Source: Neocallimastix sp. 'constans'
Lineage: Eukaryota
Length of the DNA stretch: 64,000 nucleotides
Assembly (NCBI GenBank): GCA_050613775.1
Contig: JBODTK010000133.1
Coordinates: 372,001 to 436,000 of the forward strand
Direction of reading: 5' to 3'
Shown here: one piece after another, positions 24,383-53,409 of the stretch
Numbering within the stretch: position 1 is the stretch's first letter
Layout of the letters: each line of letters starts with the position of its first letter
Made by a program: the position numbers and the translations under genes
The notes under the pieces: model-generated
Databases searched by the model: none
Told to the model about the DNA's origin: nothing
What the model saw: the letters and a program-made list of their open reading frames with translations, nothing else

Positions 24383-24425
<43 letters not shown>

Positions 24426-24665: not shown

Positions 24666-24706
<41 letters not shown>

Positions 24707-25180: not shown

Positions 25181-25191
25181 GTGCTTTTATT
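25181..25191 (-). promoter_or_regulatory. Self-priming PBS of E3
   Basis: No TGG tRNA PBS. AATAAAAGCAC is complementary to GTGCTTTTATT in the LTR (25398-25388), ~40 nt downstream of TATAAATA. Confidence 0.8.
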
Positions 25192-25730: not shown

Positions 25731-25807
25731 AAAATGGGTTGAGGTGTGAGTCGAACCCATGAAGTATTGGTCATGATCAATGTAACTAACCATTGAACTA
25801 AGGTTCT
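25731..25807 (-). ncRNA. tRNA-like Pol III unit in the E3 5' LTR (anchor of the inner insertion stack)
   Basis: A box TAGTTCAATGG at 25800-25790, B box GGTTCGACTC at 25757-25748, TTTT at 25734-25731. Confidence 0.65.
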
Positions 25808-26544
25808 AATTTTACTAACTGATTGAAAAAGAACAAAACAATAATTATTAAATTGTAATAATTTTCATAATATATTACAAATATTCCAATTATAATTATT
25901 ATTGATTTCTTATTAAACTAAACTTTCCTATATTCTTCTTTCATGGAAATTCTAAAATATTGATAGTAAATATTATTATTTTTCTAAAAGTTTCTAAAAG
26001 ATTTCTATATTAAGAATCCCTTAAATAAATTCTATAAATTTTTAGAAAATTCTAAATAATTAAAATAAAAATATTGGTTGATTATTAAAATATATATATA
26101 TAAAAAAAAAAAAAAAAAAAATTTTTTTTAGAATAAATTAGTAATAAATATATTATATATTGTAATTATTATTACCAATTAAAAAAAAAAAAAAAAAAAA
26201 AAAATTTTTTTTTACTAATAAAATTTAAAATTATTAGTAATGACTTTCTAACGTTTTCGAAAAGATTTTATCATATTTATTCAATTATACTCTTAATAAA
26301 TATAAAATATATTGAATAATTATTAAAATCAATTTCAAAAATCCTAATTTTAATTCAAACTCTTTTTTTTTATTGAGGCTTTACAATTAAAAATAAAATT
26401 GAAAAAGTATAAATAGACCTATGTCTACTCAAAAAAAAAAAAAAGCAGAATCTTTCCTTAGATTATAATAAGATTACTAACAAAATTAAAATAATAAAAA
26501 TAAAATTAATAATAAGAATATTTTTAGTTAGTTTTAAATAGTTT

Positions 26545-26605
<61 letters not shown>

Positions 26606-26881
26606 TAGTTTTAAATAGTTTAGTTTTAAAATAGTTTAGTTTGTTTAGTTTTAAATAGTTTAGTTTTGATAGTTAGTTATTTAATTAAATTTTTAGTTAT
26701 AATAGTTTAGTTAATATTATTAAGTAATTTATTTAGTTTAGTGCATAATTTAATAAATAGTTTTATTTAGTTATATAAAAATAAAAAAAAAAAAAAAATT
26801 TTATTGTTTAATAAATAATAGTAATAATTAATTTTCTTATTAGCTAAAAAAAAATATAAACAAATAAACACATAAACAAAT

Positions 26882-26923
<42 letters not shown>

Positions 26924-27494
26924 ATCAAAATAAAGTGTATTTATTGTAATCCTTTTATTTCTTATATAACCGAACATTAGAAATGGTGGAGATATCGGGG
27001 ATATAAGAAATAAAAGTAAGGAAAGATAAATATTATAAAAAAAAAAAAAAAAAAAAAAAAGAAAAAAAGAAAATTTTTTTTTTGTTAATTATAACTATAA
27101 AAAAAAAAAAATATTAAAATTTTAGTTTATTAATTGTGATATATAAAATATAAAATTCTTATAATTACTATATATTTGCATATAGTATTTTCACAACGGT
27201 ATACTGAGTAGAGGTTGTGTAAAAATATAAAAATAATTAAATAAAAGAGAGTAGAATAGGGAAGTCTCTTGTAGAAGCGAGAGAGTAAAGGGTTTTAGAA
27301 TAAGATTATAAATTACCAGTAAGTTGGATATTGAAAAAGCCGTAAATTCCATGTTTCAATTGGTAGGCACAATAGAAAACTTTATTTATAATTGACGGTT
27401 CTAAGATCGAGGTTGAAAATCGTAGAGAGACGACCTGCGGGTTTCGAATATTTTATTTAATTATAATATATGCAAATGAAATAATAATAAATAA

Positions 27495-27535
<41 letters not shown>

Positions 27536-27792
27536 TATTTTTGATTCTTAGATATATAATTAGCAGTTGGGAATAACTGGATTATATATCTTTTATATTT
27601 CTTAATTTTAATTATAGACTGTCGAAAGAATTTCGAGTCTACTATAGGAGGAATAGACTGTCAAAAGGATTTTTGAGTCTAAAAATTAATTTATATTATA
27701 TTATAAAATCAATAATAATTACTCTATATAAAGAAAAAGAAAATTTTTTTATTAAGTTGGAATATTTATTAATACATTTTTTATTATCAAAG

Positions 27793-28707
27793 ATGACTAA
27801 CCAGGAAATAGATTTCAAATCTTTGAAAAAGGAACTCAAAGATATTGAAAAATTAACCAAGGATAACTTAGATATTAAGACTTGGGCCTCAGAAATACAA
27901 TTATGGATTGAGCTTGAAGAAGTTACTAATCCAAAAAAAATATTTATTGCATGCGTTTTAACATCTACGGGTGAACCGAGGAAGGTAATTCAAGAATTGA
28001 AGAATAATTTGGATAACTATGATAGTGATGATGAAGATGAAGATAATGATGAAAGTGACAATGAAAGTAACGGCGAAAATGATACTTCTTATCCTACATT
28101 CTCAGAGATTATTGATGCATTAGAGACGTTTTATGGCATTAAGGAAGATCAGAATTTATTAGTAAGAGAAATACGTTCCCTAAGAATAAAACGTAATGAA
28201 AAAGTGAAAGATTTTAACACACGTTTTAGATCTTTATACTTGAAACTAGACAAGAAGCATAAGAAGCAAGTAAGTGTTCTAGATTACGTGGATTCTTTAA
28301 GAAACAATGAAGAAGCATGGAAAAGAGTCTCCTTACAAGATGATATTTCTTTAAAACAAGCTTATGAAGCCGCTGAAAAGGTAGATAGATTAATGATTAA
28401 CCAAACCCGACTTACAAATCAAGAGAATTACCATCGAAACAATTATAATAGTAATAATACCTTCAAACGAAATTCTCCCTCTATACCTTATAATAAGAAA
28501 TTAGAGTCCGAAGAACTAAAGAGAACTAATGTAGATGTTGAAAGGGAAGACCTTACTAGTAAAATGAAACATTTAACTATTAAAACTTGTTTCTATTGTG
28601 AAGAAAAAGGTCATTACAGTAATCATTGTCCTAAACTTCAGTCCATTATTCAAGAAAACAAAAGAAAGTACTTCAATCAAAACCACAATATGCCTTTAAA
28701 TCAATAG
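27793..28707 (+). CDS. gag: E4 Gag
   Basis: Homologous to E1 Gag; CFYCEEKGHYSNHC; likely start MTNQEIDFKSLK. Confidence 0.9.
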   Translation: MTNQEIDFKSLKKELKDIEKLTKDNLDIKTWASEIQLWIELEEVTNPKKIFIACVLTSTGEPRKVIQELKNNLDNYDSDDEDEDNDESDNESNGENDTSYPTFSEIIDALETFYGIKEDQNLLVREIRSLRIKRNEKVKDFNTRFRSLYLKLDKKHKKQVSVLDYVDSLRNNEEAWKRVSLQDDISLKQAYEAAEKVDRLMINQTRLTNQENYHRNNYNSNNTFKRNSPSIPYNKKLESEELKRTNVDVEREDLTSKMKHLTIKTCFYCEEKGHYSNHCPKLQSIIQENKRKYFNQNHNMPLNQ

Positions 28708-31700
28708 TCGGGAGTAGAAGCACTCCCGGAACAAAAAAATTAGCTTCAATTCAATTTCACCCTAATAAAGAGATTTCCTTCCCAGATGTTCTGACAGTAA
28801 ATAAAATTGGTAGTGAGGAAGAAACGAACTCAGAAAACAATAATAGAAGTTGTAATATTAATAGTCTTTATGAAATAAATTATGACCCAGATGAGGAAGA
28901 AAATCTAAATGCAACCAATTTTACTGTGGCGGCTGCAAAAAGAAAAATAGAAAAAGTAGATGATACTATAGAAAACTATGAAAATCGTGAATACAAAAGT
29001 TTGAAAAATAATCCTAGACCAATAGCAACCCCCGCACTTCGGAAGAAGAGAGAAAGAGAATTGGAAATAAATCCCCCAAAGCAAGCTGAAAAGCAACTAC
29101 ATACTTCCTTTATAGCCCAACCAAGAAATAATAAAGAAAAGGCTAAGGCTAAAGAAGCTCGTGATAAAGAGAGAGGAAGTATAAGCATTGAACCAAAAAT
29201 CAAATCTAATGCAAAATCTACAAATAAAGATGAAACAACCCCAATAATAAATATAGGTGACGACCTAGAGGACTTAGAAAACCTCAAAGAAATAGAAACA
29301 ATTGAAAAGTTAATGGAAGAAGGAAATACGGAAAAGAAAATCTCCACCCCTAAAGTTAAACGGAAAATTCAAATGTTAGAGGATCAAGAAGAATATGATG
29401 TCTTAAAAGATTTAAATAATATAAGATGTAACATCACATTCGGACAATTAAAAAATTCTTCACCCCAAATTAGATCTCAAGTTTCTCAAGGGCTAAAGTT
29501 AGTTAAGAAAGATAAAATAGCGGGAGCAGTAGAAAATATTACTGCTATGACAGTCATGGTCAATAACGTAGACCACTCTTACAAAAGTAATAGAAAGGAA
29601 ATCCAAGAGGATGATATTGCCATGGTTGACTGCACAGTTGAAGGCATTAAAGGTAAACTCTTAATCGACTCTTGTAGTAATCTAAATATAATAACTCGAA
29701 AATATTTAGACAAAATTCCAAGAAACTTTGAACCAATTGGTATAAGCTGTGGTCGCATCCGTCTTGCTACTAACAATGATGAGTACTCAGAGAGTGTCAT
29801 AATTAGAGTACCTATTCGAATTAACAATTTTACTATGACTGTAAATTGTCGAATTGTAGAAAAAGAAGATCCATTCTATGATGTTTTAATAAATCTTAAA
29901 ACACAAGCTGTTCATAGATTATTCATACATCCTGTATTAAACAGTCTTTGTAGATTCTCAACTGAAGGATTCATTGAAAAGATTGCACAGTTAAATAATG
30001 ATTTTGAAGACGAACCAAAACTTTTATGTTCAGTAACAAAAATTGACGATAAAGAAGAAGTCAATATTAAAGCAAAGTTAAAAACCATTGAAGGATTACC
30101 TCCCTTAGATTATATACATAATGATATTTTTAAATACTCTGAATAAAGACTTTCAAGACAAAATTCTTAAATTATTGGAGGATAACATAGAAATTGTTGC
30201 GACTTCCTCAGAAGAATTAACACCATCAGATTTGACTCCCCATAAAATTGAATTAAAAGAAGGAACTAAACCGGTTAAGCAGAAGAGTTATAAGCTAACA
30301 AAATTTAAATCTGATATTCTGAAAGAATTACTGATTGACCTAATTGAGAGGAGATTAATTGAACCCTCTCATTCAACTTGGAGTTCTCCAGTAGTATTGG
30401 TTCCAAAACCAAATGGAAAATGGAGATTATGCGTAGATTACAGAAAAGTTAACGAAGCCACTGAAAAAGACTCTTATGCATTACCTTATATCGATGAAAT
30501 ATTTGATAGTCTACAAGGCGCAAAAATTTTTACTACCATGGATCTTTACTCTGGTTACCATCAGATATTAATGAATGATGAAAGTGTAGAGATCACTACC
30601 TTTACTACTAAATTCGGAAATTATCAATTCAAAGTCATGCCTTTTGGTCTCACGAACGCTCCAGCTACCTTTCAACGTGAGATGAATCAAATTCTTTTTC
30701 CTTTAATAGGTGTATGTGTATACAATTTTATCGATGACATACTGATATATTCTAAAAGTGTTGAAGAACATCTTATCCATATCCAACAAGTCCTTGAAAT
30801 CTTTCGTAAACACAAATTGAAAATCAATATAGAAAAATGCCAATTCTTTAGGACAGAAGTAGAAATACTTGGTCATAAACTATCTACAAAAGGATTAAGT
30901 CCAATGGAAAGTAAAATAGAAGCTATTAAAAAGTGGAATCCTCCCACTAATATTCACGAACTAAGGTCATTCTTAGGGACAGTCGGTTACTACCAAAAAT
31001 TCATTTTTAATTATTCTAAAATAACGGCTCCCTTATGTAAACTTTTACGTAAGAATACAAAGTATGTCTGGAATGACGAACAACAAATATGTTTCGAAAA
31101 GCTGAAAGAATGTTTAATAAATGCACCTATCCTTAAATTTCCCGATTTTAGTAAACCCTTTATTATCAGAACAGATGCCTCCTATGATGGACTCGGAGGA
31201 GTATTACTTCAAAAGGATGAAATCACTGGTAAAGAACATCCTGCTCATTATATAAGTCGTACCTTATCGAAGTCAGAGAAAAATTATGGAATAACAGACT
31301 TGGAAGGTTTAGCTTTATACTTCGCTTTAGAAAAGTTAAAATCATACATTATGGGAAATCCGCACACTACCATAATTTATACTGATCATAGACCTTTACT
31401 TGGACTTTTTAAGAACAAGGAACCGAAAAATGCTCGACAAACAAGATGGTGTTTAACAGCAAGTTCCTTAGGTGTTGATATTCGTTACGAACCTGGAAAA
31501 AAGAATGTCTTAGCCGATGCATTGTCTCGAATGAAGAGTGAAAAGGATAAGAAATTGCTAGCCATGAAAGTTACACAAGAAAAAGATGAAACATTATTAT
31601 CTAAAGTAATTAAAGACTTTATATCGGAAAAATTTACCACTATTGACGGTGAAGACTATTTTGTAGATGGAAATAATTATAGGAAATTGGTCACTGATAC

Positions 31701-32751
31701 AGCCGAAAAAGTTAAACTGATCTTGGCAGCTCATGACATTGGTCATGAAGGCTATTACAAAACTTACCAAAGGCTAAAGAAAAGCTATTACTGGAACAAT
31801 ATGATAATCGATGTCAAAAGAATAATTGGTAAGTGTGAAAAATGCCAACTCAATAGACCGCAACCCTACCCTGATCCTACAGAAGATACTCCAACTAAAG
31901 TAGAAGGACCTTTTGTACATTTAGGATTAGACATTATAGGTCCGCTTGTGAAAACTAAGAATAATAAACAGTATATCTTAGTAGTTGTTGACTACTTTAC
32001 GAAGTGGGTTGAAGCGGAAGCTACTGAAACTATTACTTCCCAAGATGTGATTAAATTTCTCATAAATGTGTTCGCCCGACATGGTGTTCCGCAAATCATC
32101 ACTACTGATAATGGGGTGCAATTTACCTCTGACATGACTAAAGTTTTTCTAGATTTATATGATGTCTACATAAAATTCGTTTCTACCTATCATCCGGAAT
32201 CAAACGGTTTAACCGAAAATAGGAATAAAGAGATAGGTAAATTACTTCGATTGCTAGGAGAAAAGAATAAAGACTGGGATGAGATATTACCTTCTGCGTT
32301 ATGGGCCCTCAGAACAACTAAAAATTCAGTTACCAACCACTCTAGCTTTGAACTAGTATACGGAAGAGAAGATCAGCAACCATTCGACATTGCTGCTAGA
32401 CCAACAAAAGACCTATATAAATCTTCGGATGAAGTATTGCTAGAAAAATTTGTTTCACATTACAGATGGGTTTTAGAAGCTGCCGAGAATAGTAAAAACG
32501 CAAGTAAATACTGGGCAACTAGGAGAGAAGAAAAGAATAGCCTAAATCAAGGAAAAAGAATAGCTGTTGGCGATTTAGTACTAGTTCGAAATTTTAACCG
32601 CACAAAGCTTGAACCATATTTCGTAGGTCCTTTAAAAGTCATTAAGAAACAATATAATACCTTAACTTTAGCTGATCCAAATACCGGAATCCAATTAAAT
32701 AGAAATGTCCATTTGAAGAATATAGTAAAGTATAATTCAGCCTCCATTTAG
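28695..32751 (+). pseudogene. pol: E4 Pol with one frameshift near 30130
   Basis: ORF 28926-30146 (protease LLIDSCS) and ORF 30121-32751 (RT FIDD, RNase H, integrase) overlap in different frames at a T/A run. This could be an assembly error. Confidence 0.88.
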
Positions 32752-33495
32752 CCTGAATTTATGCGAGGGCATCTTGAAAAAGAACAAAACAATAATTATT
32801 AAATTGTAATAATTTTCATAATATATTACAAATATTCCAATTATAATTATTATTGATTTCTTATTAAACTAAACTTTCCTATATTCTTCTTTCATGGAAA
32901 TTCTAAAATATTGATAGTAAATATTATTATTTTTCTAAAAGTTTCTAAAAGATTTCTATATTAAGAATCCCTTAAATAAATTCTATAAATTTTTAGAAAA
33001 TTCTAAATAATTAAAATAAAAATATTGGTTGATTATTAAAATATATATATATAAAAAAAAAAAAAAAAAAAATTTTTTTTAGAATAAATTAGTAATAAAT
33101 ATATTATATATTGTAATTATTATTACCAATTAAAAAAAAAAAAAAAAAAAAAAAATTTTTTTTTACTAATAAAATTTAAAATTATTAGTAATGACTTTCT
33201 AACGTTTTCGAAAAGATTTTATCATATTTATTCAATTATACTCTTAATAAATATAAAATATATTGAATAATTATTAAAATCAATTTCAAAAATCCTAATT
33301 TTAATTCAAACTCTTTTTTTTTATTGAGGCTTTACAATTAAAAATAAAATTGAAAAAGTATAAATAGACCTATGTCTACTCAAAAAAAAAAAAAAGCAGA
33401 ATCTTTCCTTAGATTATAATAAGATTACTAACAAAATTAAAATAATAAAAATAAAATTAATAATAAGAATATTTTTAGTTAGTTTTAAATAGTTT

Positions 33496-33568
<73 letters not shown>

Positions 33569-33844
33569 TAGTTTTAAATAGTTTAGTTTTAAAATAGTTT
33601 AGTTTGTTTAGTTTTAAATAGTTTAGTTTTGATAGTTAGTTATTTAATTAAATTTTTAGTTATAATAGTTTAGTTAATATTATTAAGTAATTTATTTAGT
33701 TTAGTGCATAATTTAATAAATAGTTTTATTTAGTTATATAAAAATAAAAAAAAAAAAAAAATTTTATTGTTTAATAAATAATAGTAATAATTAATTTTCT
33801 TATTAGCTAAAAAAAAATATAAACAAATAAACACATAAACAAAT

Positions 33845-33886
<42 letters not shown>

Positions 33887-34934
33887 ATCAAAATAAAGTG
33901 TATTTATTGTAATCCTTTTATTTCTTATATAACCGAACATGATTGATAAATAACCAAATTATAAATTAAGAAAAATCAATAAAATGGAATAATAACCCTC
34001 TTAATTAGTTATTGATAATTATAAAATAATATTTTAATAAAAATAAATTAAAAGATTTAAAATTATTAAATAAATATTATTTTAATTTAAAGAACGATGT
34101 ATTTTATATTAAATTATTCTTTTATTTTACTTTAACGATTTTAAATTAAATCTCAGTTTAAATTGATATTAATATTAATTAAAAAGAAACTTATTAATAA
34201 TAACAAAATTGTTTATTTTATCTTAAAAGTGTTTACTTAAAATAATTATATAGTTTTATTTTAAATAATTTAAACTTAAAAGAAAAATATAAAAACATGT
34301 AAATATTTCTTTAAAAATAAAAAATCAGAATTCAAGAATTAAAAATTTAAAATTTAAGTTTTAATAAATTATTTTCTTTTATTCTCATTTATTTTAAATA
34401 CTTTTTATTAAGAATATAAATATTCAAAATAATAAAAAGTACAATTTTATATTGATAAATAAAGTTTTATTATAAAAAAAAAAACAAATATTCTTTTCTT
34501 ATTTTAAACTGTAGTGTTTTAATTAACATTTTTGTGTTAATAACTACCCTTTTAATTGACAAATTATTATCACTTTTAGAAGTAAATTCTAAATTAAGAT
34601 AATAATCAACATTTGTCAAACTGGTGGAGAATCCTAACTAAGCCCGGTGAGGTAAGTAGAATTCTTTATTCTATAAAAAAAAAAAAAATTAAAACCCAAT
34701 GAGGTAATTAAAGTTATTCTTATGTAAAACCCAATGAGGTAAAATACTTAAGTGAAAATTAATAATAAATAAAAGAAAACCATTAAATCATAGTTATAAA
34801 ATATTTAGCAGAAATTAATTAAAATAGATTAATGTAATAATTAATTTAAAATTATTGATATAATTATTTTAAAAAAAATTATAAGTTACACAATTAATAA
34901 AAATATAGTAAATTAAATTATAATTAATTATTAT

Positions 34935-35002
<68 letters not shown>

Positions 35003-35201
35003 TAACCATTATAGAACTAGTAATAATATATAATTTTTAGATATTAAAAATTAATCTTAGTTTATATATAAAACAAAGAAAAGATAATATATATTAAATG
35101 AAGAAAATAATAAAATAAGTTAAATAATATAAATAAGTTAAATAATATAAATATAAATAAGTAAAATAATACAAATAATATAAGTAAATAATATATATAT
35201 A

Positions 35202-35244
<43 letters not shown>

Positions 35245-35333
35245 AATATACATATATAGTGATACAATAAAGTAGCATATATAAGTAAAATAAAATAAAA
35301 TAAAAATATATATAAAAAAAAAAAAAAAAAAAA

Positions 35334-36284
35334 ATGGAAAATCAAATAAAATTAATAACGTTCAACAGACTTCCCATTCTCGGAAAAACAAAAGTTGTAT
35401 TCGATGAATGGAAGTTTGCATTCGAACATTGGTGTCTTACTTTTAAAGTAAGCGAAGAAAGAGAGAAAATAGATTATTTAATTGCAATAACAGATGGTGT
35501 TGCAAGGACAATAGTTTATAATTCTCTAAATAAAAAAATACCAGATGAATATGATACTATATTAACAAATTTAGCAAAGTATTATAAGAAAACTGCGTCA
35601 AAGAATTCCAGACTTCTGGAACTTTCATCTATTACTATACGTAAAGATGAAACAATTACAGACTTTGACATACGATTCTCTGAATTGCTAAACCAAATAA
35701 GTAAAACTGTGGTAATCTCAGATGTTATCGTAACATCTTATTATATAAATGCTTTTCGTAATTGGAATAAAATATACGAAAGCTTAATGGAGGAAGAACC
35801 AACAACCTTAGAAGAAGCTCAGAAAATCACTTCGAAGAAAGAAAAGATTATGAACCTTATTAAAGAAAATAAAAATAAAAATCCTTCAAAAGAGAAAACT
35901 ACTAGCCATAATTCTACAAAAAGGCAATCCGAAAGTTCTTATATTAATTTTTATTCTCCAAATAATAAAAATAAGGAAGGAAATAATAATAACGCTAATA
36001 GTTCAACGTATGGATATCAAAATAAAAATTTTTATAATAATAAATCCTATAATAGTAACTACAATAATAAGTACAATAATTATTATCAATATAAAGAACA
36101 ATTAAATAAAAATACTAATAATAATAGAAATAATGCAAAACAAAACATAAATGATGAAGAAATAAAAGAAATAACACAAAAGCTCTCTGACTTAAAAATT
36201 AATTTTTGCGTAAATTGTATGAGGATCGGACATAATGAAGTTGACTGCCCAGAATCTGAACAAAATGATGAACGTTTAAAATAA
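35334..36284 (+). CDS. gag: E5 Gag
   Basis: CVNCMRIGHNEVDC knuckle; lies between PBS and pol. Confidence 0.9.
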   Translation: MENQIKLITFNRLPILGKTKVVFDEWKFAFEHWCLTFKVSEEREKIDYLIAITDGVARTIVYNSLNKKIPDEYDTILTNLAKYYKKTASKNSRLLELSSITIRKDETITDFDIRFSELLNQISKTVVISDVIVTSYYINAFRNWNKIYESLMEEEPTTLEEAQKITSKKEKIMNLIKENKNKNPSKEKTTSHNSTKRQSESSYINFYSPNNKNKEGNNNNANSSTYGYQNKNFYNNKSYNSNYNNKYNNYYQYKEQLNKNTNNNRNNAKQNINDEEIKEITQKLSDLKINFCVNCMRIGHNEVDCPESEQNDERLK

Positions 36285-40973: not shown

Positions 40974-41799
40974 TGATAAGAATGTACTAAATAATGCATT
41001 CTTAATTAAATCTACGATTTATTTCTAATACATTATGTGTACATTATTATTTTTGTACTTTAATAAATTTTTAAATCCAAAGATCAAAAATTAAATCAAA
41101 AATTATATTAAACTTTATATTTTTATATTAAATCTTATATTAATAGTAATATTTTTATATATTTAAAACTTATATTAGCAATATTAATAATAAATCTTAT
41201 TTTTTTTTTATATTAATAATGAAAATTTGTATTAATAATATTTTTATATATTGATAATTAAAAATTTATATATTATATTTTAACTTTTATTATAAAATTT
41301 TATATCGAAATGTTTTATTTTATATTGAAAAATATTTTATTTTATTAAAAACCTTTATATTAGAATAGTATTTTTATTTTTATTTGAATATTTTAACAGA
41401 TTGTAATAAAATTTATAGCCAATTAAATAAATTCTTATTAGTAATATTTTAGATATTTCTTAAAAAAAAAAAAAAAAAAAAAAAAATGTTTTATTAATAT
41501 TATAAATGTATTTTATTTATATTGTTATAATTAAATTTTATATGATTGATTATAAAATTCAATTTAAATTTAATAGTTTTTATAAAAAAAAAAAAAAAAA
41601 AAAAAAAATAAATAAAATGTAATTTAGTGGCAAGAACAACTTTTATGCCTTGAAAAAAAGTATAAATAGTTGTAAATTTTGCTACCAATTTTTAAAAAAT
41701 CATAAAATAAAATCAAATAAATTTAATAAAATAAATAAATAAATAAATAAAATCTGTGTTTCTTACTTTATTTTTATTTAATTCTCTAAAACCTTAACA
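40974..41799 (+). mobile_element. Solo LTR of the E6/E8 family, TSD TGAT
   Basis: Near-identical to the E6 LTRs; no PBS follows. Confidence 0.93.
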
Positions 41800-41803
41800 T
41801 GAT

Positions 41804-43407
41804 TGATGCATGTCCATGTAAAATATTTAATAATTTGAATACGTATTTAAATGTAATGTAATGTAAATTATTGTGGATAAAAATGTTTTCCAAATTTTTA
41901 ATATAAATTTAAATGTATTCCAAATTATTAATTTAAATAATTTTCTCAAAAATGTATGACTAAATTATTTGGAGAATTTACGTAACAATTACTCAGTTGA
42001 ATCACGAAACTTCATAAATTAAAAAATAATTAGTCATTAATTAGTTAAATTAAAATAATTAAAGGAATATTGCCTTTTCCGTTTGTTTACAAAAACTTGC
42101 CGTTTTGTTTACTTGTCTTTTAAATTATAGAAATTCTAAAAATAAAAATAGCAAGTTGTGGTTTAGTAAATTGGTTTTCACAACTTGGCAAAATTTAAAT
42201 TAAATATATGGATAGAATATATTTAATCATATAATTAATGAATTAAACTCTAAATTTTCTTCATAGAAAATTTTAGAAAAATTAGATAGTTTTAAATAGG
42301 ATTTATATTAAAATAATTCATAACATTTCATGTAATTTATTAAATAATGTAATTGATAATATAAAATAATATGTTTATGTAATTTATTAAAATTTATTTT
42401 GATTTAAAACTTTATTTTGAAAAAGTATAAAAAGAGTTAATTTTTCAACTATTGAACGATAGTTGGAAAATCGTATAGAATAGTAAAATCGTATAGAATA
42501 GGAAAATTTAAATTTTATTATTAGTTTCGTAACTATTATTAGAATAGTTACTTTCTTATAAAACAATTATATTATAGTTTGTAAAACCTTAACTGCTAGT
42601 GGGAACTCCGGAAAGGACCCTGCGTTACCCAGTTAAGTGGTTGTTGAAAATTAGTTAATAAATAAAATAAATAAATAAAAGAAATTAAAAAAGAAAATAA
42701 TTAATTAAATAATAGAGGTTTAAGATATAGTGTTATTAGTGTAGTAAAGTTAGTTTAGAATAGCCACAAACCTAGACTTGATAAGTATTTTATTTTACAG
42801 TCCAGTAAAAATAATAGAAAATAATAGAAAAATTATTTAGAAAAATTATTAATATAAATATTTATTAAAAATTAATTTTATATAATGAATCTTAAAATAT
42901 ATTATTAATATATTATTAAAGATAATTTATTATTATTAATTATTAAAATATTAAATTAAATAATAATATTAAAAATATTAAAAGAATTGTTGATAATATA
43001 GTAAAATTAGTTATATTAATTATAACGGAGATTGAATGTTTAATTAAATTGATGTTAATATTAAAATAATTTTTAAATAATGTTAAACAATATGAACTAA
43101 TAGTTATAAGTAAAAAGTTATGAATATTTATATTTATTAATTAATTTTAGTGTTTCGATAAATAAAATTTATAAAATTAGTAAAAAATATAATTATGAAA
43201 ATAATTTATAAATAAATATTTTCTTTTTTTTTTAAGGAATAATAATAAAACATGTATTTTTTTTATGATAAAATATAATAAATAAAATAATAAAAGATAA
43301 ATAAATAAAAAGTAAATATAATTATTGTAATATAATATTCTTGGAGTAATTCCCTTTTGCACAAACGCCCAACTAACATATACGGTATTTAATAAAATAT
43401 CGTATCA
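41804..43407 (+). mobile_element. Insertion Y: probable long solo LTR, TSD TGAT
   Basis: TGAT...ATCA termini. Its 3' end TAAAATATCGTATCA matches the terminus of solo LTR D at 59836. Confidence 0.7.
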
Positions 43408-43461
43408 TGATGATAAATAACAAAATTATTAAATTAAAATAAATAATAAAAAACAAATTCT

Positions 43462-44196
43462 TGTCGAAATTACAACTGAATTAAATTTCAATTTCAATTA
43501 ATTTCAATTAAAATTATTAAAAACAAAATAATTAATAAAAATTTATAATTCATTAATTATTCTTTAAATTTTATTTATTTTATAATATTATAAGTTATTT
43601 GATCATCTTAGGACCAGCTTAGGCCTACTGATTCTAATGATATCATATTAAACTTAAATATTATTAATAAATAAAATATTTATTAACATGAATCATTTGG
43701 TCATGTCATCCTTGATTCATAAATTAATGTTTATGTATTAATTTATGTTATATTGATTTAATTAATTATTAATTATTAATTACTATATTAAATATTTAAA
43801 TTTAATATTATATTATATATATTAGCTAATATATTAGATTAAAAAATATAATTTATTTATATTAAACATATTCTTATACTAAATATTATTATTATCAACT
43901 TTATATTATTATTATCAATATTCTCAAACCTACAAAGTATAAAAAGAAAATTCAAATTTATCTTTTTGTCCTTTGTAAGGTTATAGTTAACCTATTATAA
44001 TATAACTATATATTTTTATTAATAAATAAAAATTTTTATCATATCAAACCAATTATTAGTTTTAATTAAGTGTTAAATTAACAAATTTAACTTTATAACT
44101 CTTTTATTTTAGTAATTTACTTATATCTATATAGTTATATTATATAGATATATCAACCTGATTCCTCGTTAAATTCAACCTGTTTACTTTTTAACA
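43462..44196 (+). mobile_element. Nested solo LTR, E0-related, TSD ATTCT
   Basis: ATTCT at 43457-43461 and 44197-44201; TGT...ACA termini; homology to 53410-54113. Confidence 0.82.
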
Positions 44197-44717
44197 ATTC
44201 TTGTCTAACTTAACCCAAAAATTAATCCATTCTAAAAAAAAATTAAATCCATATTTAAGAAAAATTAATTAAATAAAGATAATTAAAATAAAATAATAAT
44301 AAATTAATTAATCATTAATAAATTTAATTAAAAACTAAAATAAATTAATAAATAATATTTTTCTAAAACAACAAATAAACAAAATAATAAACATATTTAA
44401 TAAATTATAAACAACAAATAAACAAACTTATAAACAACGCAAAATTAAAATTAAATAGTTAAATAATTTTTTAAGTTACTTTTATTTAAAATAATGATTA
44501 TTTTATTTATTTTATAACTCAACTTTTATAAACAAATTGTAATTAAAATAACATTTTAAAACTCATCTTTATCAACATTTTAATTGTAAATATTGTTTAA
44601 TTTAATAATAAATTATTCTTTATTTCTCTTTTATTAATTTTATTATTTTTAATGTAAATAGTTTAAAATCAAAGAAAAATATAAAAACATGTAAATATTT
44701 CTTATAAATTATTCTTT

Positions 44718-45030
44718 ATTATTAATTATTTAATAAATTATTATAAATATTTTATTAGTTTTAATAATCAAAAGTATGATTATTAATTATTTAATAAATT
44801 ATTATAGATATTTTATTAGTTTTAATAATCAATTTTTTATGATTATTAATTATTTAATAAATTATTATAGATATTTTATTAGTTTTAATAATCAATTTTT
44901 TTATGATTATTAATTATTTAATAAATTATTATAGATATTTTATTAGTTTTTAATAATCAATTTTTATGATTATTAATTATTTTGATAAATTATTATATAT
45001 TTTATTAGTTATTAATAATCAATTTTATTA
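44718..45030. repeat. ~62-64-bp tandem repeat, ~5 copies
   Basis: Recurring TATTAATTATTTAATAAATTATTATAGATATTTTATTAGTTTTAATAATCAA. Confidence 0.85.
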
Positions 45031-45799
45031 TTAAAATTTAAAATAAATTAGTATAAATAATAAATATTTCATTTTATTATTTTATTAGTTTTAACAATTA
45101 TTTTATTAATTTAAACAAAATTAATTATTAAATAAATAAAGATTAATATTAAAATAAAAATAAATTTTTTTTAATAAAACATTTTTGTGTTTAATAATAA
45201 AACATATTTATTTTTTTAAATTTCTTAAATCAATTTTATTCAGTATTTATCCTTTTATTCACTTCTACAAAATTTAATTTTTTGTAGATTAAGAATATTA
45301 GGTATAAATCACTGATGATAAGAATGTACTAAATAATGCATTCTTAATTAAATCTACGATTTATTTCTAATACATTATGTGTAGATTATTATTTTTGTAC
45401 TTTAATAAATTTTTAAATCCAAAGATCAAAAATTAAATCAAAAATTATATTAAACTTTATATTTTTATATTAAATCTTATATTAATAGTAATATTTTTAT
45501 ATATTTAAAACTTATATTAGCAATATTAATAATAAATCTTATTTTTTTTTTATATTAATAATGAAAATTTGTATTAATAATATTTTTATATATTGATAAT
45601 TAAAAATTTATATATTATATTTTAACTTTTATTATAAAATTTTATATCGAAATGTTTTATTTTATATTGAAAAATATTTTATTTTATTAAAAACCTTTAT
45701 ATTAGAATAGTATTTTTATTTTTATTTGAATATTTTAACAGATTGTAATAAAATTTATAGCCAATTAAATAAATTCTTATTAGTAATATTTTAGATATT

Positions 45800-45847
<48 letters not shown>

Positions 45848-45938
45848 TTTTATTAATATTATAAATGTATTTTATTTATATTGTTATAATTAAATTTTAT
45901 ATGATTGATTATAAAATTCAATTTAAATTTAATAGTTT

Positions 45939-45974
<36 letters not shown>

Positions 45975-46394
45975 AATAAAATGTAATTTAGTGGCAAGAA
46001 CAACTTTTATGCCTTGAAAAAAAGTATAAATAGTTGTAAATTTTGCTACTAATTTTTAAAATATCATCAAAAAAAAAAAAAATAAATTTAATAAAATAAA
46101 TAAATAAAATAAATAAATAAATAAAATCTGTGTTTCTTACTTTATTTTTATTTAATTCTCTAAAACCTTAACATTTATATGGTGGAGATATCGGGGAATT
46201 AAATAGAAATAATAGTAAATAACATAGATTTTTTTTTAATTTTTTTTTATTTTATATTGATAAACAAGTAAGTCGTTAATCCTTTGATTAACCTATGGCG
46301 CTTGTTTGATATATATATAAAAAAAATTTTTTTTTAAATAAGTAAAATTAAGATTCAAAAAAAAAAAAAAAAAATTTTGTAAAATTATAACAAG

Positions 46395-46620
46395 GAGCGG
46401 ATAGAGCTCATACACAGTGTATTCTCAGATAGCAACAAATTAACTCTATTCATAGTAGGTTATTGAATAGTAGTTAATTTGGAGATTAATTGGAAAGAAG
46501 ACGAAGGTATTTGGTTACCGACCCGGTAATAATAGTTCAGCCTTCAACGTTTCAACACACGAAGGTGCGGGTACTTTCCAAGCACTGGCGAATAAGGAGC
46601 TTACGTCACCGAAGGCGTAA
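46395..46620 (+). ncRNA. Conserved structured RNA in the E6 leader (homologous to 24068-24253)
   Basis: 35-nt identical block, two further conserved blocks and covarying helices relative to the E3 leader. Confidence 0.65.
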
Positions 46621-47606
46621 GATTGTTTTTTTTATATATATTTTTTTTACTTTTCTTTGTGCTAGTTATAAGGCACTTTATTATATAAAGTATCAGACTT
46701 TGTCTAACTTCGCCATTTAAATTTTTTTTATTTTTTTTTATTACTGATACTTTATTTGTTTAATAATTCCTGTAAAAGAATCTTAATTTACTTTGAAAAT
46801 ATTGTGTTTTTAGTTAATTTTTATTAGTTAATAAAAATATTATTGAATACTTTTAAAATTTTTTTTATTCCGTACATAGATTATCGGATTAAGTTTATCC
46901 TACATAGTAATTGGGCTAGTGGGCTCTGAACTGCTATATTTTATATTGAATATAGTAATCGTGGCACACGCGTGGCATGACACCATTAGGTAAGCTGCAC
47001 GTCAGACAGTGTGTACTATCAGATTGTACGACAATAAAGATTATTTTTTTGTATTTAATAATTATAATTAATTAATAATTTTATTAGCTATAACAATACA
47101 ATATTTATCGTTTAAAAAGAAAAATTTTTGAAAGGTGAAAATAATAAATAAAACTTTGCTTCTAAATTTATTACTACAAATATACTAAATTACAAAATTC
47201 AAGTGGTCGATAAAGATTTCGAGCTTGAAAAATATTCTATTGAGTTGTCGATAAAGATTTCGAACTTAAAAATTATTCTATTGAGTTGTCGATAAAGATT
47301 TCGAACTTAAAAATTATTCTATTGAGTTGTCGATAAAGATTTCGAACTTAAAAATTATTCTTAATAAAGTAGTCGAAAAGAACCTCGTGCTTTATAATTT
47401 CTACTAAGTTGTCGATAAAGATTTCGAGCTTATATCTACTAAAGAAAGCAAATAAAATTATTATTTTCAAAAGTTACTAAAATATATTGTTTTAAAAATT
47501 GATTCGATATTAAATTACCTATTAAATTATATTTTTAAAGTTGTATTTCCAAATTTATTCTTATTTAATCACCTCACTAATATACAACAAGAAATATTTA
47601 AACAAA

Positions 47607-48492
47607 ATGTCCAAGGAAACAACTTTGAGCTTTAAAGAATTGAAAAAAGAATTAAGAGATATTGTGAAACTTAGCAAGGACAATTTAGATATTAAGTCCT
47701 GGGCTACTGAATTAAAACTTTGGATCAAGATACAAGGTATCACAGATCCAGAAACAATATTTAATGCTTGTTTACTTACCAGCTCTGGTGAAGTACAACG
47801 CGTTATTGAAGATTTGGGAGAAGATAGTGATGATGAAAGTGATGATTCATCAGATGAAGAAGAAGAAGATGATGAAGAAGAAAATGTTGATGATTTTTTT
47901 TTCAAGTCTTGAAAATTTTTACGGTATTAAAGAAGACCAAAATTTACTTCTTAAAGAACTTCGTGCAATGCGAATTAAAAGAAACGAAAAGATTAAAGAC
48001 TTTAATGTAAGATATAGAACTTTGTACACTAAACTTGATAAAAAGAGAAGAAAGCGCATTGGTGTACTAGATTATATTGATTCTATTCAAAATAATTATG
48101 AAGCCTGGAAGAAATTATCCCTTAAAGATGATATAAGTATGGAGAAAGCTTTCAAAATTGCCGAGAAAGTAGATAGACTTTCTGTAAGGAACAATAATAT
48201 TAATACCTATAATGTTAATAATTCCCAGCATAATCAAAATAATCAAAACAGTACTACTTCAAGACTTTATCCTAAAAGAAGAAACGAAACTTTCCAAACA
48301 AGTCAAACAAATAATAAACTGAAACCTCAAGATATTATAGAAGAATCAACCCAGAAAATGAGAAATTTATCTGTTAAAACTTGCTTCTTCTGTAAGGAAG
48401 AAGGTCATTACTCATACTATTGCCCTCAATTAAATAAGATTATGGAAAAAAATAAAAAAGAAATATATTCCAAAAAGTCTTTAAACTTCTAA
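47607..48492 (+). pseudogene. gag: E6 Gag, frameshifted at a poly-T run near 47900
   Basis: Two partial ORFs together match E1/E4 Gag; CFFCKEEGHYSYYC. Confidence 0.88.
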
Positions 48493-51400
48493 ATGGGAGC
48501 AGAAGCACTCCCAATGACAAAACAATAGCTTCATTAAATAATTTACAAAATAATACTTTTACTAAGAATACTCCAATTGATAATAATTCCTTTAATGAAG
48601 AATCTGAAGAATCTGATTTTAGTGACACAACTGAAAGTGAGGATGATATCATTATAAATGCTATAAAAAGAAAAATGAATGATAATAAGAGCGAAAAAGA
48701 AGAAAATAATTCCAAGAAAGTACATAAAAGTTTAAAAGATAATCCACGTCCTTTCGCAACTCCTGCTTTAAGAAATAAGAAAGAAAATGAGCTACATAAT
48801 AAACCAAATAAAGTTTATAAAAATCAAATACTTCCTTCAATTTTAACTCAACCAAATATTAACAAAGAAAAACAAAAAGAAAAGGAATTAAGAAATATAA
48901 CAAGAGTAAGAGAAAGTAAAGAAGAAAACAACAATTATTCATCAAAAGGAAAGGAAAAAGTTGAATCTGAAGATATACTTGTAATCGATAATGAAATAGA
49001 AGATCTAGAAATGAATAAAGATAATCAACAAAATAAAACTAATACTTTGGAAAAATTAATTTCAACAAAAACTAAAGAAACTAATAATGAAAATACTCAG
49101 TTAGTAAAAAGGAATATCAAAATGATGAATAATAAAGAACCTTACAATATTATGGATGATTTAAATAATCTTAAATCCAGTATTACGATAGGTCAACTCT
49201 TGAATGCATGTCCGAAAATTCGTTCACAATTAACTCAAGGTTTAAAGTTAGAAAAGTCTAAAATAATTGGAACTGTAGACAATGTAATAGCACGAACTTT
49301 ATTAGTAAATAACTATGATCATAGCTACATAAGTAAAAGTAATGAAGTAGCCGAAGAAGACTTAGCAATGGTTGATGCAAGTGTTGACGGAGTACTAGGA
49401 AAACTTTTAATTGATTCTTGTAGTAACCTAAGCATCGTTACTAAGCAGTATTTTGATAAATTACCTGGTGAATATGAAACAGTTGGAAAAAGTCGTGGAA
49501 GAATCCAACTAGCAACACAAGATGAAGAATACTCGGAAGGAATTATTGTTCGATTACCAGTAAAAATTAATAATTATGAATTTAATGCGGACATTAGAAT
49601 TATTGAGAAAGAAGACTCTTTTTATGATATGTTACTAAATTTTAAAACTCAAATCGATCATTGTTTATTTATTCATCCGACCTTAAACAGTTTATGTAAA
49701 CTTTTGTCAGAAAGTGAATACGAAGAAATAGCTAAAATAAATAATCAATATTATGATGAAGAAAGTATAATTTGCACTATTAGAAAAGTTAAAGAAACGA
49801 ATAATGAAAAGGAAATTATAAAGGAATTAACTCCAATGGAATTTATTGAGAGTGATGAATTTTTTAGTACCTTAAATAAAGATTATAAAGAACAAATTAT
49901 TAAAATTCTCAAAGAAATGATTGACATAGTTGCCACTTCAACAGAAGAACTAACTCCTTCTAAACTTTCACCACATAAGATCCGTTTAAAAGCTAATGCA
50001 AAGCCAGTAAAATTAAGAAGTTATAGGTTAACTAAATTAAAATCAGATATCTTAAAAGAAGAACTTACAAAACTTATTAAGAAAGGATTGATAGAACCAT
50101 CCTGTTCAGAATGGTCATCTCCAGTAGTACTTATTCTAAAACACAATGGAAAGTGGCGCTTGTGCATTGACTACCGAAAAGTCAATGATATGACAGAAAA
50201 AGATTCTTATTCAGTTCCATATATAGATGAAATTTTTGATAGTCTCGGAGGAGCTAAAATATTTACAACTCTTGATTTATTTTCTGGTTTTCACCAAATC
50301 TTAATGGATGAAGAAAGCGTTGAAGTAACCACTTTCACTACTAAGTTTGGAAATTATCAATTTAAGGTTATGCCTTTTGGACTTACTGGAGCTCCTTCAA
50401 CCTTCAAAAGAGAAATGAATAAAATTTTATTCCCTTTTATTGGTGAATTTGTTTATGTATTTATTGATGATGTTTTGATCTATTCAAAAAATATCGAAGA
50501 ACATTTAATTCATATTAAACAAGTATTAGAAGTATTTAAAGAAAACAAGTTAAAAATTAATATTGAAAAGTGCCATTTTCTTCAAACTGAAGTTGATGTA
50601 TTAGGTCACAAACTTACTACTAAAGGATTAAGTCCTATGGAAAGTAAAATAACAGCTATTAAGAAGTGGGAAGCCCCTTCATCAATTCATGAATTAAGAT
50701 CATTTCTAGGAGCAATAGGGTATTATCGTGACTTTATCCCTAAATATGCTCAAATTACCTCACCTTTATGTAAATTATTGAAAAAGAATACCAAATATGA
50801 ATGGAATAAAGAACAACAAGAAAGCTTTGAACTCCTAAAAGAAAAATTAATCAATGCACCTATTCTAAAATTTCCGTCATTTGACAAACCTTTTATCATT
50901 AGAACTGATGCTTCGTATAATGGAATTGGTGGAGTTCTTTTACAAAAAGAAGAAGAAACCGGTAAGGAGCATCCAATACACTTTATAAGTAGAAGTTTAA
51001 AGAAAGCTGAAAAGAATTATGGTATTACCGATTTGGAAGGAACCGCTTTGTTTTACTGTATGACTAAATTTAAATCTTATATTGAAGGAAATCCACTACC
51101 TACAACTATTTACACAGATCATAAACCATTAGTTGGTTTATTTAAGAATAAAGAACCTTTGAATGCAAGGCAAACAAGATGGTGTCTAACCGCTAGTATG
51201 CTTGGAATTAATATAAAATATGAATCAGGCAAAAAGAATGTGTTAGCTGATGCTCTTTCAAGAATGAAAAGTAAGGAAGAGAGAAAGATATTATTAACAA
51301 AAATTACTAATGGAAATAATGAAGAATTATTATCTAAAGTTATAAAGGAATTTATTAATGAAAAGTTTACTGTTATTGATGGTGAAGATTACTTTATCGA

Positions 51401-52477
51401 CAATGGAAATTATAGAAAATTAATAACGGACGAAAATGAAAGGTTTAAATTAATTTTAGAAGCTCATAATATTGGCCACGAAGGATATTACAAAACATAT
51501 CAAAGACTTAAGAAAAACTTTTATTGGAATCATATGATTAAAGATATCAAAAGAATTGTTAGTAATTGTGAAAAATGCCAATTAAATCGTCCTCAACCAT
51601 ATCCAGAACCAACCGAAAACCATCCAACTAAAGTGGAGGGTCCCTTTGTGCATTTAGGATTAGATATTATAGGACAGTTACCAAAAACAAGAAATAATAA
51701 TCAATATATTATAGTAACTGTTGATTACTTTACCAAATGGGTTGAAGCCGAACCCACTGAAAACATAACTTCTTCTGATATAATTAAATTTTTAATAAAC
51801 GTTTTTGCAAGACATGGTGTACCTCAAGTTATTACTACTTATAATGGAGTCCAATTCACTTCTGATATGACTAAAATCTTTCTTGATCTTTATGATGTAT
51901 ATGTTAAATTTGTAGCTACTTACCACCCTGAATCAAATGGCCTTACTGAAAATCGAAATAAAGAAATTGGAAAATTACTCCGTTTATTAGGAAGGAAAAA
52001 TCAAGATTGGGATGAAGTTTTACCTTCTGCTTTATGGGCACTTCGAACTACCAAAAATACAGCTACTGGACATTCTAGTTTTGAATTAGTATATGGAAGA
52101 GAAGACCAACAGCCGTATGATATAGCCATAAGAACAATTGAAAATGCAGGTAAATCATATGATGAAATTTTAATGGAAAAATTTGTTCGTCATTATCAAT
52201 GGACTAGAGAAGCATGCGAAAATGTGAAGAATGCTAACAAGTATTGGGCAACAAGACGAGAAGAACAAATAAGTATGAAAAAAGGAAAAGAATTAAAGGC
52301 TGGTGATCTTGTTCTTGTTAGAAACTTTAGCCGCACTAAGCTAGAACCATATTACAATGGACCATTTAAAATTTTAAAATTCAATTCAACACAGCAACCC
52401 TAATCGATCAGAAGACTGGAAAGCAACTCGATAGGAATGTTCACTTTAAAAATTTAGTAAAGTTTAACTCCGCTTAA
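48480..52477 (+). pseudogene. pol: E6 Pol with mutated integrase catalytic Asp and a C-terminal frameshift
   Basis: All domains present. TTYNG replaces TTDNG; frameshift near 52380 relative to the E8 copy. Confidence 0.9.
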
Positions 52478-52991
52478 AGAGAAGCTTGAGTCTTCGTCGG
52501 GGCATCTTGATAAGAATGTACTAAATAATGCATTCTTAATTAAATCTACGATTTATTTCTAATACATTATGTGTACATTATTATTTTTGTACTTTAATAA
52601 ATTTTTAAATCCAAAGATCAAAAATTAAATCAAAAATTATATTAAACTTTATATTTTTATATTAAATCTTATATTAATAGTAATATTTTTATATATTTAA
52701 AACTTATATTAGCAATATTAATAATAAATCTTATTTTTTTTTTATATTAATAATGAAAATTTGTATTAATAATATTTTTATATATTGATAATTAAAAATT
52801 TATATATTATATTTTAACTTTTATTATAAAATTTTATATCGAAATGTTTTATTTTATATTGAAAAATATTTTATTTTATTAAAAACCTTTATATTAGAAT
52901 AGTATTTTTATTTTTATTTGAATATTTTAACAGATTGTAATAAAATTTATAGCCAATTAAATAAATTCTTATTAGTAATATTTTAGATATT

Positions 52992-53034
<43 letters not shown>

Positions 53035-53409
53035 TTTTATTAATATTATAAATGTATTTTATTTATATTGTTATAATTAAATTTTATATGATTGATTATA
53101 AAATTCAATTTAAATTTAATAGTTTTTATAAAAAAAAAAAAAAAAAAAAAAAAAATAAATAAAATGTAATTTAGTGGCAAGAACAACTTTTATGCCTTGA
53201 AAAAAAGTATAAATAGTTGTAAATTTTGCTACTAATTTTTAAAATATCATCAAAAAAAAAAAATAAATTTAATAAAATAAATAAATAAAATAAATAAATA
53301 AATAAAATCTGTGTTTCTTACTTTATTTTTATTTAATTCTCTAAAACCTTAACACTGAAGATTTCGTTACAGGAATTGAGGACCATTGTCTGTTATTAAA
53401 ATTTCTGGT

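Follow-up and report, generated by a model that had tools for sequence, protein, structure and literature searches.

In a 64,000-nt stretch of the genome of Neocallimastix sp. 'constans' (contig JBODTK010000133.1, positions 372,001–436,000; hereafter the window), six retroelement units are stacked at one site of a long terminal repeat (LTR) that belongs to another retrotransposon, the chromovirus derivative E3. The site is situated a few bases upstream of a tRNA-gene-like RNA polymerase III (Pol III) unit carried by that same LTR, and chance cannot account for six insertions that fall inside five bases of 64 kb. We consider it probable that these six Ty3/gypsy-type insertions were placed by complexes tethered to the Pol III initiation complex predicted on the LTR-borne unit. 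Insertion at a Pol III start site, understood as insertion within a few bases and about 5–20 nt upstream of a unit with A and B boxes, was found for the six elements of the stack, at −12 to −16 relative to the equivalent of tRNA position +1, and for an element of metagenome contig L018, at −18.

The intact E3 LTR reads ACTAA CTGA AGATTTCGTTACA at 20553–20574. The other LTR of E3 is split at this point (ACTAA/CTGA/AGATTT) and reads ...ACTAAC TGAT (25819–25823), E4, TGAT, E5, CTGAT, solo LTR, TGAT, Y, TGA, X, CTGA, E6, CTGA and AGATTTCGTTACA (53359–53371). Base-by-base reading showed that the six inserted units are all on the + strand, all begin with TG and end with CA, and are separated solely by TGAT, CTGAT, TGA or CTGA; every junction, and the chain of target site duplications (TSDs), is therefore as described in the initial annotation of this DNA. 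E4 (25824–33939), E5 (33944–40968) and E6 (45316–53354) are full-length Ty3/gypsy elements, with TG...CA LTRs, a primer binding site (PBS) after the 5′ LTR and the domains RVT_1, RT_RNaseH, Integrase_H2C2 and rve in this order, and a Pfam search found no chromodomain in any of the three. E4 has LTRs at 25824–26976 and 32775–33939, the PBS TGGTGGAGATATCGGGGA at 26984 and TGAT on both sides; E5 has two identical LTRs of 675 bp, a PBS starting with TGGTGGAGAATCC and the TSD CTGAT, into whose left copy E4 later inserted; and E6 has LTRs at 45316–46173 and 52508–53354, the same PBS as E4 and the TSD CTGA. The pol product of E5 is 43 % identical to that of E6, and that of E4 43–75 %; the best match of the E6 product to a solved structure is Ty3 Gag-Pol (7q5b, E = 1.9e-103). 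The three units between E5 and E6 are a solo LTR of the E6 family (40974–41799, 826 bp, flanked by (C)TGAT and TGAT) and two non-coding TG...CA units, Y (41804–43407, 1604 bp, TGATGCATG...CGTATCA), with the TSD TGAT, whose right copy is completed by the initial T of X, and X itself (43411–45311, 1901 bp, TSD CTGA). The first ca. 46 nt of X are similar to the beginning of the E5 LTR; X also contains tandem repeats of ca. 63 bp (44718–45144). Both X and Y are devoid of internal repeats of the kind formed by a pair of LTRs, and are most likely solo LTRs.

The element that carries the stack, E3, occupies positions 19930–53371 of the minus strand and is bounded by the TSD GGAAT (19925–19929 and 53372–53376), as established by self-comparison and direct reading. 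Its intact LTR (19930–20574, 645 bp, TGTAACG...CGTTACA) holds an empty copy of the insertion site (CTGA, 20558–20561) together with the A/B-box unit, and is followed by the internal region (20575–25190) and by the larger part of the split LTR (25191–25822), which contains a second copy of the unit and the left copy of the TSD; the right copy, CTGA, and the last 13 nt of the split LTR (AGATTTCGTTACA) are found at 53355–53371, immediately before GGAAT. The internal region contains one open reading frame (ORF; 23375→20904, 823 amino acids) that codes for gag, a CCHC knuckle and protease, followed by the tail of the integrase core, an SH3 domain and, lastly, a chromodomain. The direction of this ORF implies that the right-hand, split LTR is the 5′ LTR of E3 and the intact one its 3′ LTR, in agreement with the previous assignment. 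The chromodomain is located at the C-terminus of the integrase (Pfam Chromo, E = 4.8e-18, residues 773–821), behind SH3_Tf2-1 (residues 691–750). No match to RVT_1, RNase H or Integrase_H2C2 was obtained for E3 in the Pfam search, and within the single ORF its protease is immediately followed by the final portion of the integrase core. E3 is a non-autonomous deletion derivative of a chromovirus that has lost reverse transcriptase (RT) and RNase H. A canonical PBS (TGG...) is absent after its 5′ LTR; the TGG... that follows 20574, which would be a PBS if E3 were on the + strand, was rejected because of the ORF, the order from gag to chromodomain and a run resembling a polypurine tract (PPT).

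The two E3 LTRs differ by two substitutions in 645 aligned bases. These sole differences, at 25755 and 25778 (LTR positions 60 and 37), are both within the ca. 75-nt unit of the stack-bearing copy, and consist of a G>A change in the A box, which retains a purine, and a C>T change between the boxes. No common variant was listed in the sequencing reads at LTR positions 60 and 37, and the intact copy apparently keeps the letters of the family majority.

The Pol III-like unit of the intact LTR spans 20470–20546 on the minus strand. TRGYNNANNGG and GGTTCGANNC are the consensus motifs of the A and B boxes, and we searched for both motifs separated by 30–60 nt and followed by a T-run terminator right behind position 73. 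Read on the minus strand, the E3 LTR starts with TGTAACGAAATCTT CAGT TAGTAAAATT, followed by AGAACCT TGGTTCAATGG ... GGTTCGACTCA ... CCC A TTTT. The unit therein has all the elements of a type-2 Pol III promoter, that is, both boxes, their spacing and the T-run: the A box TGGTTCAATGG (20539–20529) starts at 20539 and the B box GGTTCGACTC (20496–20487) at 20496, 43 nt apart (44 in a tRNA), and a run of four T begins 24 nt past the start of the B box, where a tRNA gene would end. In the split copy, the A and B boxes start at 25800 and 25757, and the position equivalent to tRNA +1 is 20546 in the intact LTR and 25807 in the split one. A scan of both strands of the window found the strict B box confined to the two E3 LTRs, and a pair of A and B boxes appeared in one of 1000 composition-preserving block shuffles, with a mean of 0.21 B boxes per shuffle. 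The unit is embedded 28 nt inside the LTR, at the extreme 5′ end of U3 and in sense orientation.

With respect to the +1 of this unit, the CTGA site occupies −12 to −15 and the extra T is at −16, so that the distance of 12–16 nt given in the initial annotation was correct, and all six insertions, measured from the fixed left flank, are within −12 to −16. The register of the TSDs shifts by one base between events (CTGA, TGAT and CTGAT), which fits a distance cue better than a sequence cue.

The TSDs also retain part of the history of the stack. The T in TGAT and CTGAT has only one possible source, the initial base of a resident element, and the sole TGA spacer is the one between Y and X; X was therefore already resident at the first TGAT event, which was the insertion of either Y or the solo LTR. 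The C of the E3 flank forms part of E5's TSD (CTGAT), and E4 now interrupts the left copy of that TSD, indicating that E5 inserted beside E3 sequence and E4 did so later. This same C is also within the CTGA of X (or E6), and it is E4 that now adjoins the flank. Read in this way, the duplications prove that at least three events (X or E6, E5 and E4) occurred at the unit-proximal end of the stack. The number of substitutions between paired LTRs agrees with the nesting, being two in 645 aligned bases for E3, one in 847 for E6, none in 675 for E5 and none in 1153 for E4, and the whole stack is very young.

We then looked at metagenome contigs, which were scanned with the PBS common to E4, E6 and E1 (an element of the second stack described below), and not with the Pol III-like unit, yielding 42 loci, 13 of them AT-rich. 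The flank outside the 5′ LTR is visible in only two loci, L018 and L033: contigs L009, L015, L021 and L034 start inside the LTR; L029, L030 and L041 show a PPT-LTR-PBS arrangement, corresponding to collapsed or tandem LTRs; L007 has a truncated LTR beside a gene; and the start of the LTR is not reached in L012. The first 69 nt of L018 align at 79 % with the unit region of the E3 LTR. Conservation along this segment is uneven, with identity at 11/11 positions of the A box and 8/8 of the visible B box (19/19 overall) versus 28/48 at the remaining positions of the unit and upstream of it, a distribution that selection on the boxes would be expected to produce. An LTR starting with TGTTAAGAAATGAAC..., considered E1-like from its similarity to the LTR and PBS region of E1, begins at −18 of the unit +1 and points away from the unit, as do the elements in the window; orientation is thus divergent from the unit in seven of seven insertions. 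L018 thus represents an independent insertion, by another family, at the homologous site of a diverged LTR.

Contigs from four sequencing runs were aligned to positions 19700–21300, the depths given here being sums over contigs and not copy numbers. Summed word depth in run X1 was ca. 20,000–50,000 over most of the E3 LTR versus 74–102 over most of the flank, a difference of several hundred times, and depth over the LTR was also far above that of the flank in the three other runs; the E3 LTR family is therefore very abundant. Depth over the internal region of E3 was about four-fold lower than over its LTR in run X1. The internal region was likewise very abundant in the four runs despite lacking RT and RNase H, pointing to E3 as a highly successful non-autonomous derivative. 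No variant of at least 10 % was listed inside the unit across the four runs. There was no loose end 'behind' 20561 among 24 of the 473 loose ends, although run contigs across the E3 LTR are only ca. 100 nt long, too short to reveal interrupted copies. The well-supported loose ends at 20566 were rejected as insertion junctions, since they are LTR sequence variants in which TTTTT replaces ACTG. Together with the conserved boxes of the diverged unit in L018 and the insertion at −18, the abundance of the E3 LTR supports the earlier proposal of a portable landing pad.

These observations can be accommodated in a simple model. The unit would bind TFIIIC, which would position TFIIIB ca. 12–16 nt upstream of +1, and the integrases (or the RNase H domains) of the inserting families would dock on the Pol III complex in a single orientation. 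Each newcomer would then land at a fixed distance from the unit, pushing older elements outwards, and the abundant unit-bearing LTR would spread extra landing sites through the genome. A tethering of the type described for Ty3 and DGLT-A is the most economical explanation because it accounts for the matching distance, the slipping register, the varied sequence, the participation of many families and the conservation of the boxes.

Most of the remaining window is filled by a second, head-to-tail stack of eight LTR units on the minus strand, in the order E6-like, V, E0, W1, W2, U/Z2, E2 and E1. Its left arm (151–19929) comprises E1 (7996→151), E2 (13490→8001), U/Z2 (15590→13495), W2 (17270→15595), W1 (18282→17275) and the 3′ part of E0 (→18287), and its right arm (53372–64000) the rest of E0 (59831→53372), V (60300→59836) and the E6-like unit (64000→60305). 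The seven junctions of this stack read CA-AAAA-TG on the + strand (spacer TTTT on the − strand), and the sequence 'CAAAAATG' occurs nine times in the window, seven of them at LTR boundaries of the second stack and two elsewhere. Some E3-type LTR contigs (runs X1, X7, X13 and X14) read ...ACTA TTTTT AAGATTTCG versus ACTAACTGAAGATTTCG here (20558–20561); LTRs of this variant would offer the TTTT target of the second stack at an equal distance from the unit.

Several results weigh against tethering to Pol III. The unit is not recognizable as a tRNA: ARAGORN found no tRNA genes in the window and, with thresholds relaxed to 70 %, nothing on the strand of the unit, and Rfam gave no match at the gathering score for the window or at E ≤ 10 for the LTR. 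From its sequence, the unit is best described as a putative tRNA-gene-like promoter plus terminator, and not as a foldable tRNA gene, so that of the tRNA-like Pol III unit originally annotated the boxes, their spacing and the T4 run are real and the tRNA fold is missing. Genuine tRNA or 5S genes were found neither in the window nor among the 12 AT-rich PBS loci that were scanned for tRNA genes and B boxes (12 of the 13, L013 being left out), and none of these 12 loci has an upstream tRNA gene (ARAGORN) or strict B box. The identical site in the sister (3′) LTR of E3 is unhit, a 6:0 distribution with a two-sided P of ca. 0.03 if both LTRs were equal targets. Transcription could explain this, since Pol II read-through of the E3 transcript would keep TFIIIC and TFIIIB off that copy. 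Among the two metagenome loci with a visible 5′ flank, L018 supports tethering and L033 does not: in the latter, an E2-like LTR (TGATATAAAAC..., 1848–2236) with the same PBS starts in the last codons of a CotH kinase-like gene, to which it supplies the stop codon, and the 1.85 kb upstream of the LTR contain no tRNA or B box. The claim that several divergent families use a Pol III start site holds for the shared site and for the divergence of the pol products (43–75 % identity to E6), and is weakened by the empty sister LTR and the insertion at the CotH gene. Additionally, no Pol III-like unit was found for the second stack inside the window, its proximal end being beyond the right edge, and the ages of its members are not ordered, as E0 (14 substitutions in 849) is on the 5′ side of both E2 (1 in 699) and E1. 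With the young E2 distal to the old E0, the principle 'newest nearest the target' does not hold generally, unless E2 was renewed by recombination with complementary DNA; either such a renewal or insertion at an internal junction is possible. Lastly, the complete order first proposed (E6, X, Y, solo LTR, E5 and E4) is not forced by the TSDs, which fix E5 before E4, and the residence of X at the first TGAT event, but not the relative orders of X and E6, of Y and the solo LTR, or of the solo LTR and E5. In the same way, the statement that each newcomer landed on the side of the unit is valid for at least three events of the stack and may not extend to the second stack.

The second stack lends itself to another explanation, in which newcomers prefer the short spacers of resident LTR elements, either between two of them or at a 5′ end, for instance because the intasome is guided by the integrase or a host factor bound at LTR termini, the first insertion in E3 having occurred by chance. 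Seven LTR-boundary junctions with the same spacer in an eight-element stack with no Pol III unit in view, as well as the young E2 between two older elements and far from the 5′ end of its stack, are what such a preference would produce, and the 6:0 split between the E3 LTRs becomes natural if the first insertion attracted the rest. Nevertheless, the first insertion would have fallen by chance at the position used by Ty3 and DGLT-A, before the sole type of unit with A and B boxes in the 64 kb, when only ca. 2 × 100 of 64,000 nt are situated within 100 nt upstream of a unit, and L018 would repeat the same coincidence at a diverged unit. Moreover, E5 and X (or E6) used the flanking base of E3 and were thus inserted beside E3, not between residents. 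We regard this explanation as unlikely on its own.

An equally weak case can be made for sequence-specific homing, in which the integrases of this clade would recognise the DNA around ...AATTT(T)ACTA-N4-5 of E3-type LTRs, as in elements directed to ribosomal DNA or telomeric repeats, and the A and B boxes would be irrelevant. Both independent insertions, those of the window and of L018, are indeed in homologous LTRs in which 8 of the 11 nt beside the site are identical, and no insertion at a genuine tRNA gene was seen among the window and 12 loci. However, the duplicated bases vary (CTGA, TGAT and CTGAT, and the TTGTTG region in L018), with register slips of 1–2 nt; the identical sequence in the other E3 LTR holds no insertion (6:0); in the second stack the spacer is TTTT; and it is the A and B boxes that are perfectly conserved (19/19 versus 28/48), not the flank of the site. 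This explanation also needs the same DNA specificity in at least five divergent families, and we find it improbable. Neither of these two alternatives accounts for everything alone, although attraction to LTR junctions may act in addition to tethering.

The least likely of the alternatives, that the unit serves the chromovirus itself, either as a TFIIIC-bound barrier shielding the LTR promoter from heterochromatin or as the source of a small RNA for replication, with attraction of other elements being a side effect or unrelated, would suit the conservation of the boxes between diverged LTR copies, the sense orientation at the extreme 5′ end of U3, the lack of a canonical TGG... PBS in E3 and the absence of variants of at least 10 % within the unit over very many copies, but by eye the 3′ end of the unit shows no complementarity to the bases that follow the 5′ LTR of E3, and a function of this kind alone leaves the stack unexplained, making it compatible with tethering rather than a true alternative.

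Tethering to a Pol III complex on the LTR-borne unit thus remains our preferred interpretation. In a more elaborate version, which we put forward tentatively and with more doubt than confidence, E3-type LTRs would keep a selectively maintained, tRNA-derived Pol III module in their first 110 nt, providing hundreds of mobile TFIIIC/TFIIIB docking sites per genome; a chromodomain-less, Ty3-like clade would use these sites in one orientation as safe harbours, seeding the multi-element stacks, possibly centromere-like, by which such regions are dominated. One transposon would in this way manufacture the landing pads of other transposons, and the TTTT stack could sit in a TTTTT variant of an E3-type LTR.

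Two candidate Pol III signals were discarded. At 80 %, ARAGORN called a 'tRNA-Arg' on the strand opposite to the unit, which is noise because there are 34 such calls per window. The motif CCCGAACC at LTR ends (antisense GGTTCGGG) cannot be a B box acting at the junctions, as it has no equivalent of A58, no associated A box and a wrong geometry, being 8 nt off the junction. A conserved motif resembling CCCGAACC(A/G)TA(A/G)CA does occur at the 3′ ends of LTRs, before the PBS, in the window (13495–13520, 6973–7010 and 33925–33939) and in L007, L015, L018 and L034, and might be recognised by the integrase or serve as an extended contact with the primer.

The window is extremely AT-rich (9–33 % GC across 2-kb bins). 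The only named relatives of its pol proteins are gene models labelled Orpsp1_1, which we take to be the label of an Orpinomyces genome project, in addition to hundreds of unnamed metagenome proteins. Besides the stacked elements, the window contains three dispersed solo LTRs of a TGTTAAG...AACA family, F1 (53410–54113), Z (59141–59780) and a third one (16560–17219), with 5-bp TSDs: CTGGT, in the integrase coding region of E0; ATTGT, in an E0 LTR; and AGTAA, in the W2 LTR. E3 is itself nested at a position of this scattered type, as are the F1/Z-type solo LTRs, and the window therefore holds two classes of elements, stacking and dispersed. The 3′ end of F1-type LTRs (...TTTCAACA) is found twice exactly 38 nt upstream of an LTR start with TGTAACGA (113–150 and 53372–53409), one of these starts being that of E3 and the other an LTR-like start (112→1); the spacers are unrelated, and this could be either a coincidence or a second spacing rule. 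The LTRs of E1 (151–909 and 6973–7996) differ at their outer ends and lack a matching TSD, and the final 109 nt of its 3′ LTR match those of the F1 solo LTR at 97 % identity, which suggests that E1 recombined with an F1-type LTR. Each E0 LTR has an array of 42-bp tandem repeats (18493–19128 and 58544–59053), the number of units differing between the two.

On the metagenome contigs, the junction between the LTR and the CotH gene in L033 could be an insertion into the end of the gene or a chimeric contig, and a Fe-hydrogenase gene and a CotH gene are present on neighbouring contigs. A 35-nt pattern of the unit had no match in viral contigs or in genome contigs; the PBS had three chance matches in viral contigs, in phage contigs of high GC, and 23 prokaryotic chance matches in genome contigs, all with a GC content of at least 38 %.

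Ty3 duplicates 5 bp of its target, and the TSDs of the stack are of 4–5 bp. Integrase-TFIIIB contacts confine Ty3 insertion to a few bases at Pol III start sites (PMC6101501; 10.1101/2021.07.27.453949), and the wild-type element inserts in both orientations (PMC4600332). The stacked elements belong to the same superfamily and share with Ty3 the few-base window upstream of A/B-box genes, the short TSD and the repeated pile-up before one gene; they differ in that the target is a unit inside the LTR of another element and not a host tRNA gene, in the fixed orientation (7/7 divergent) and in the host, an early-diverging anaerobic fungus. DGLT-A, from dictyostelids, is found upstream of tRNA coding regions, at a distance of ca. 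13–16 bp that can reach 33 bp (PMC5006619), with its RNase H domain contacting the TFIIIC subunit Tfc4 (PMC6101501). It resembles the elements described here in being a Ty3/gypsy element without a chromodomain, in the equal distance, in the very AT-rich host genome and in the many solo LTRs at its targets, whereas dictyostelid amoebae belong to another eukaryotic supergroup and the portions of the DGLT-A description that we drew on include no LTR-borne target. A fixed orientation is also a feature of Tj1 of Schizosaccharomyces japonicus, which inserts 5–11 bp upstream of the mature 5′ end of tRNAs and oriented like the tRNA gene, a targeting proposed to explain the clusters of retrotransposons at tRNA-rich centromeres; the pertinent section of the same source gives fixed orientation as known for Tj1 alone (PMC4600332). 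Tj1 is likewise a fungal Ty3/gypsy element that integrates in fixed orientation a few bp upstream of Pol III genes, but the elements reported here are found between −12 and −18, facing away from the unit.

Targets other than tRNA genes also have a precedent, as TRE5-A uses B-box-like sites on the Dictyostelium extrachromosomal ribosomal DNA element that apparently bind Pol III complexes (PMC5391098). This is also a Pol III-directed element at sites that are not tRNA genes, although it is a non-LTR retrotransposon inserting ca. 50 bp upstream, and its targets are fixed in host DNA and not in a mobile LTR. The heads of tRNA-derived short interspersed elements (SINEs) and orphan TFIIIC sites have A and B boxes with the spacing of a tRNA and a T-run, have lost the tRNA fold and are spread by retrotransposition. 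The unit of E3 is similar in being an internal type-2 promoter that lies within retrotransposed sequence and has lost the tRNA fold, and differs in its position within the U3 end of an LTR, in being carried along by a chromovirus and in having neither a tail nor a TSD of its own. A literature search, at the level of titles and abstract openings, returned nothing on tRNA-directed LTR elements in Neocallimastigomycota or on an LTR-internal Pol III module as a target. Position-specific integration at Pol III genes is a textbook example of the choice of a safe site and, to our knowledge, is known from few lineages, namely budding yeast, S. japonicus and dictyostelids. Targeting of Pol III start sites in this fungal lineage, with a fixed divergent orientation and a mobile, LTR-borne target, would be a variation on that known behaviour.

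If our interpretation is true, this behaviour would also be present in anaerobic gut fungi, an early-diverging group, where it would involve several families simultaneously, and would constitute a second case of strictly oriented integration, in the opposite direction to that of Tj1. The target itself would be mobile, such that the LTR-borne module would multiply the landing sites and transposons would nest in one another and not in genes, which would help to explain the long transposon arrays of these AT-rich, repeat-laden genomes. The stack would also provide a natural system for the study of tethering to TFIIIB and TFIIIC outside yeast.

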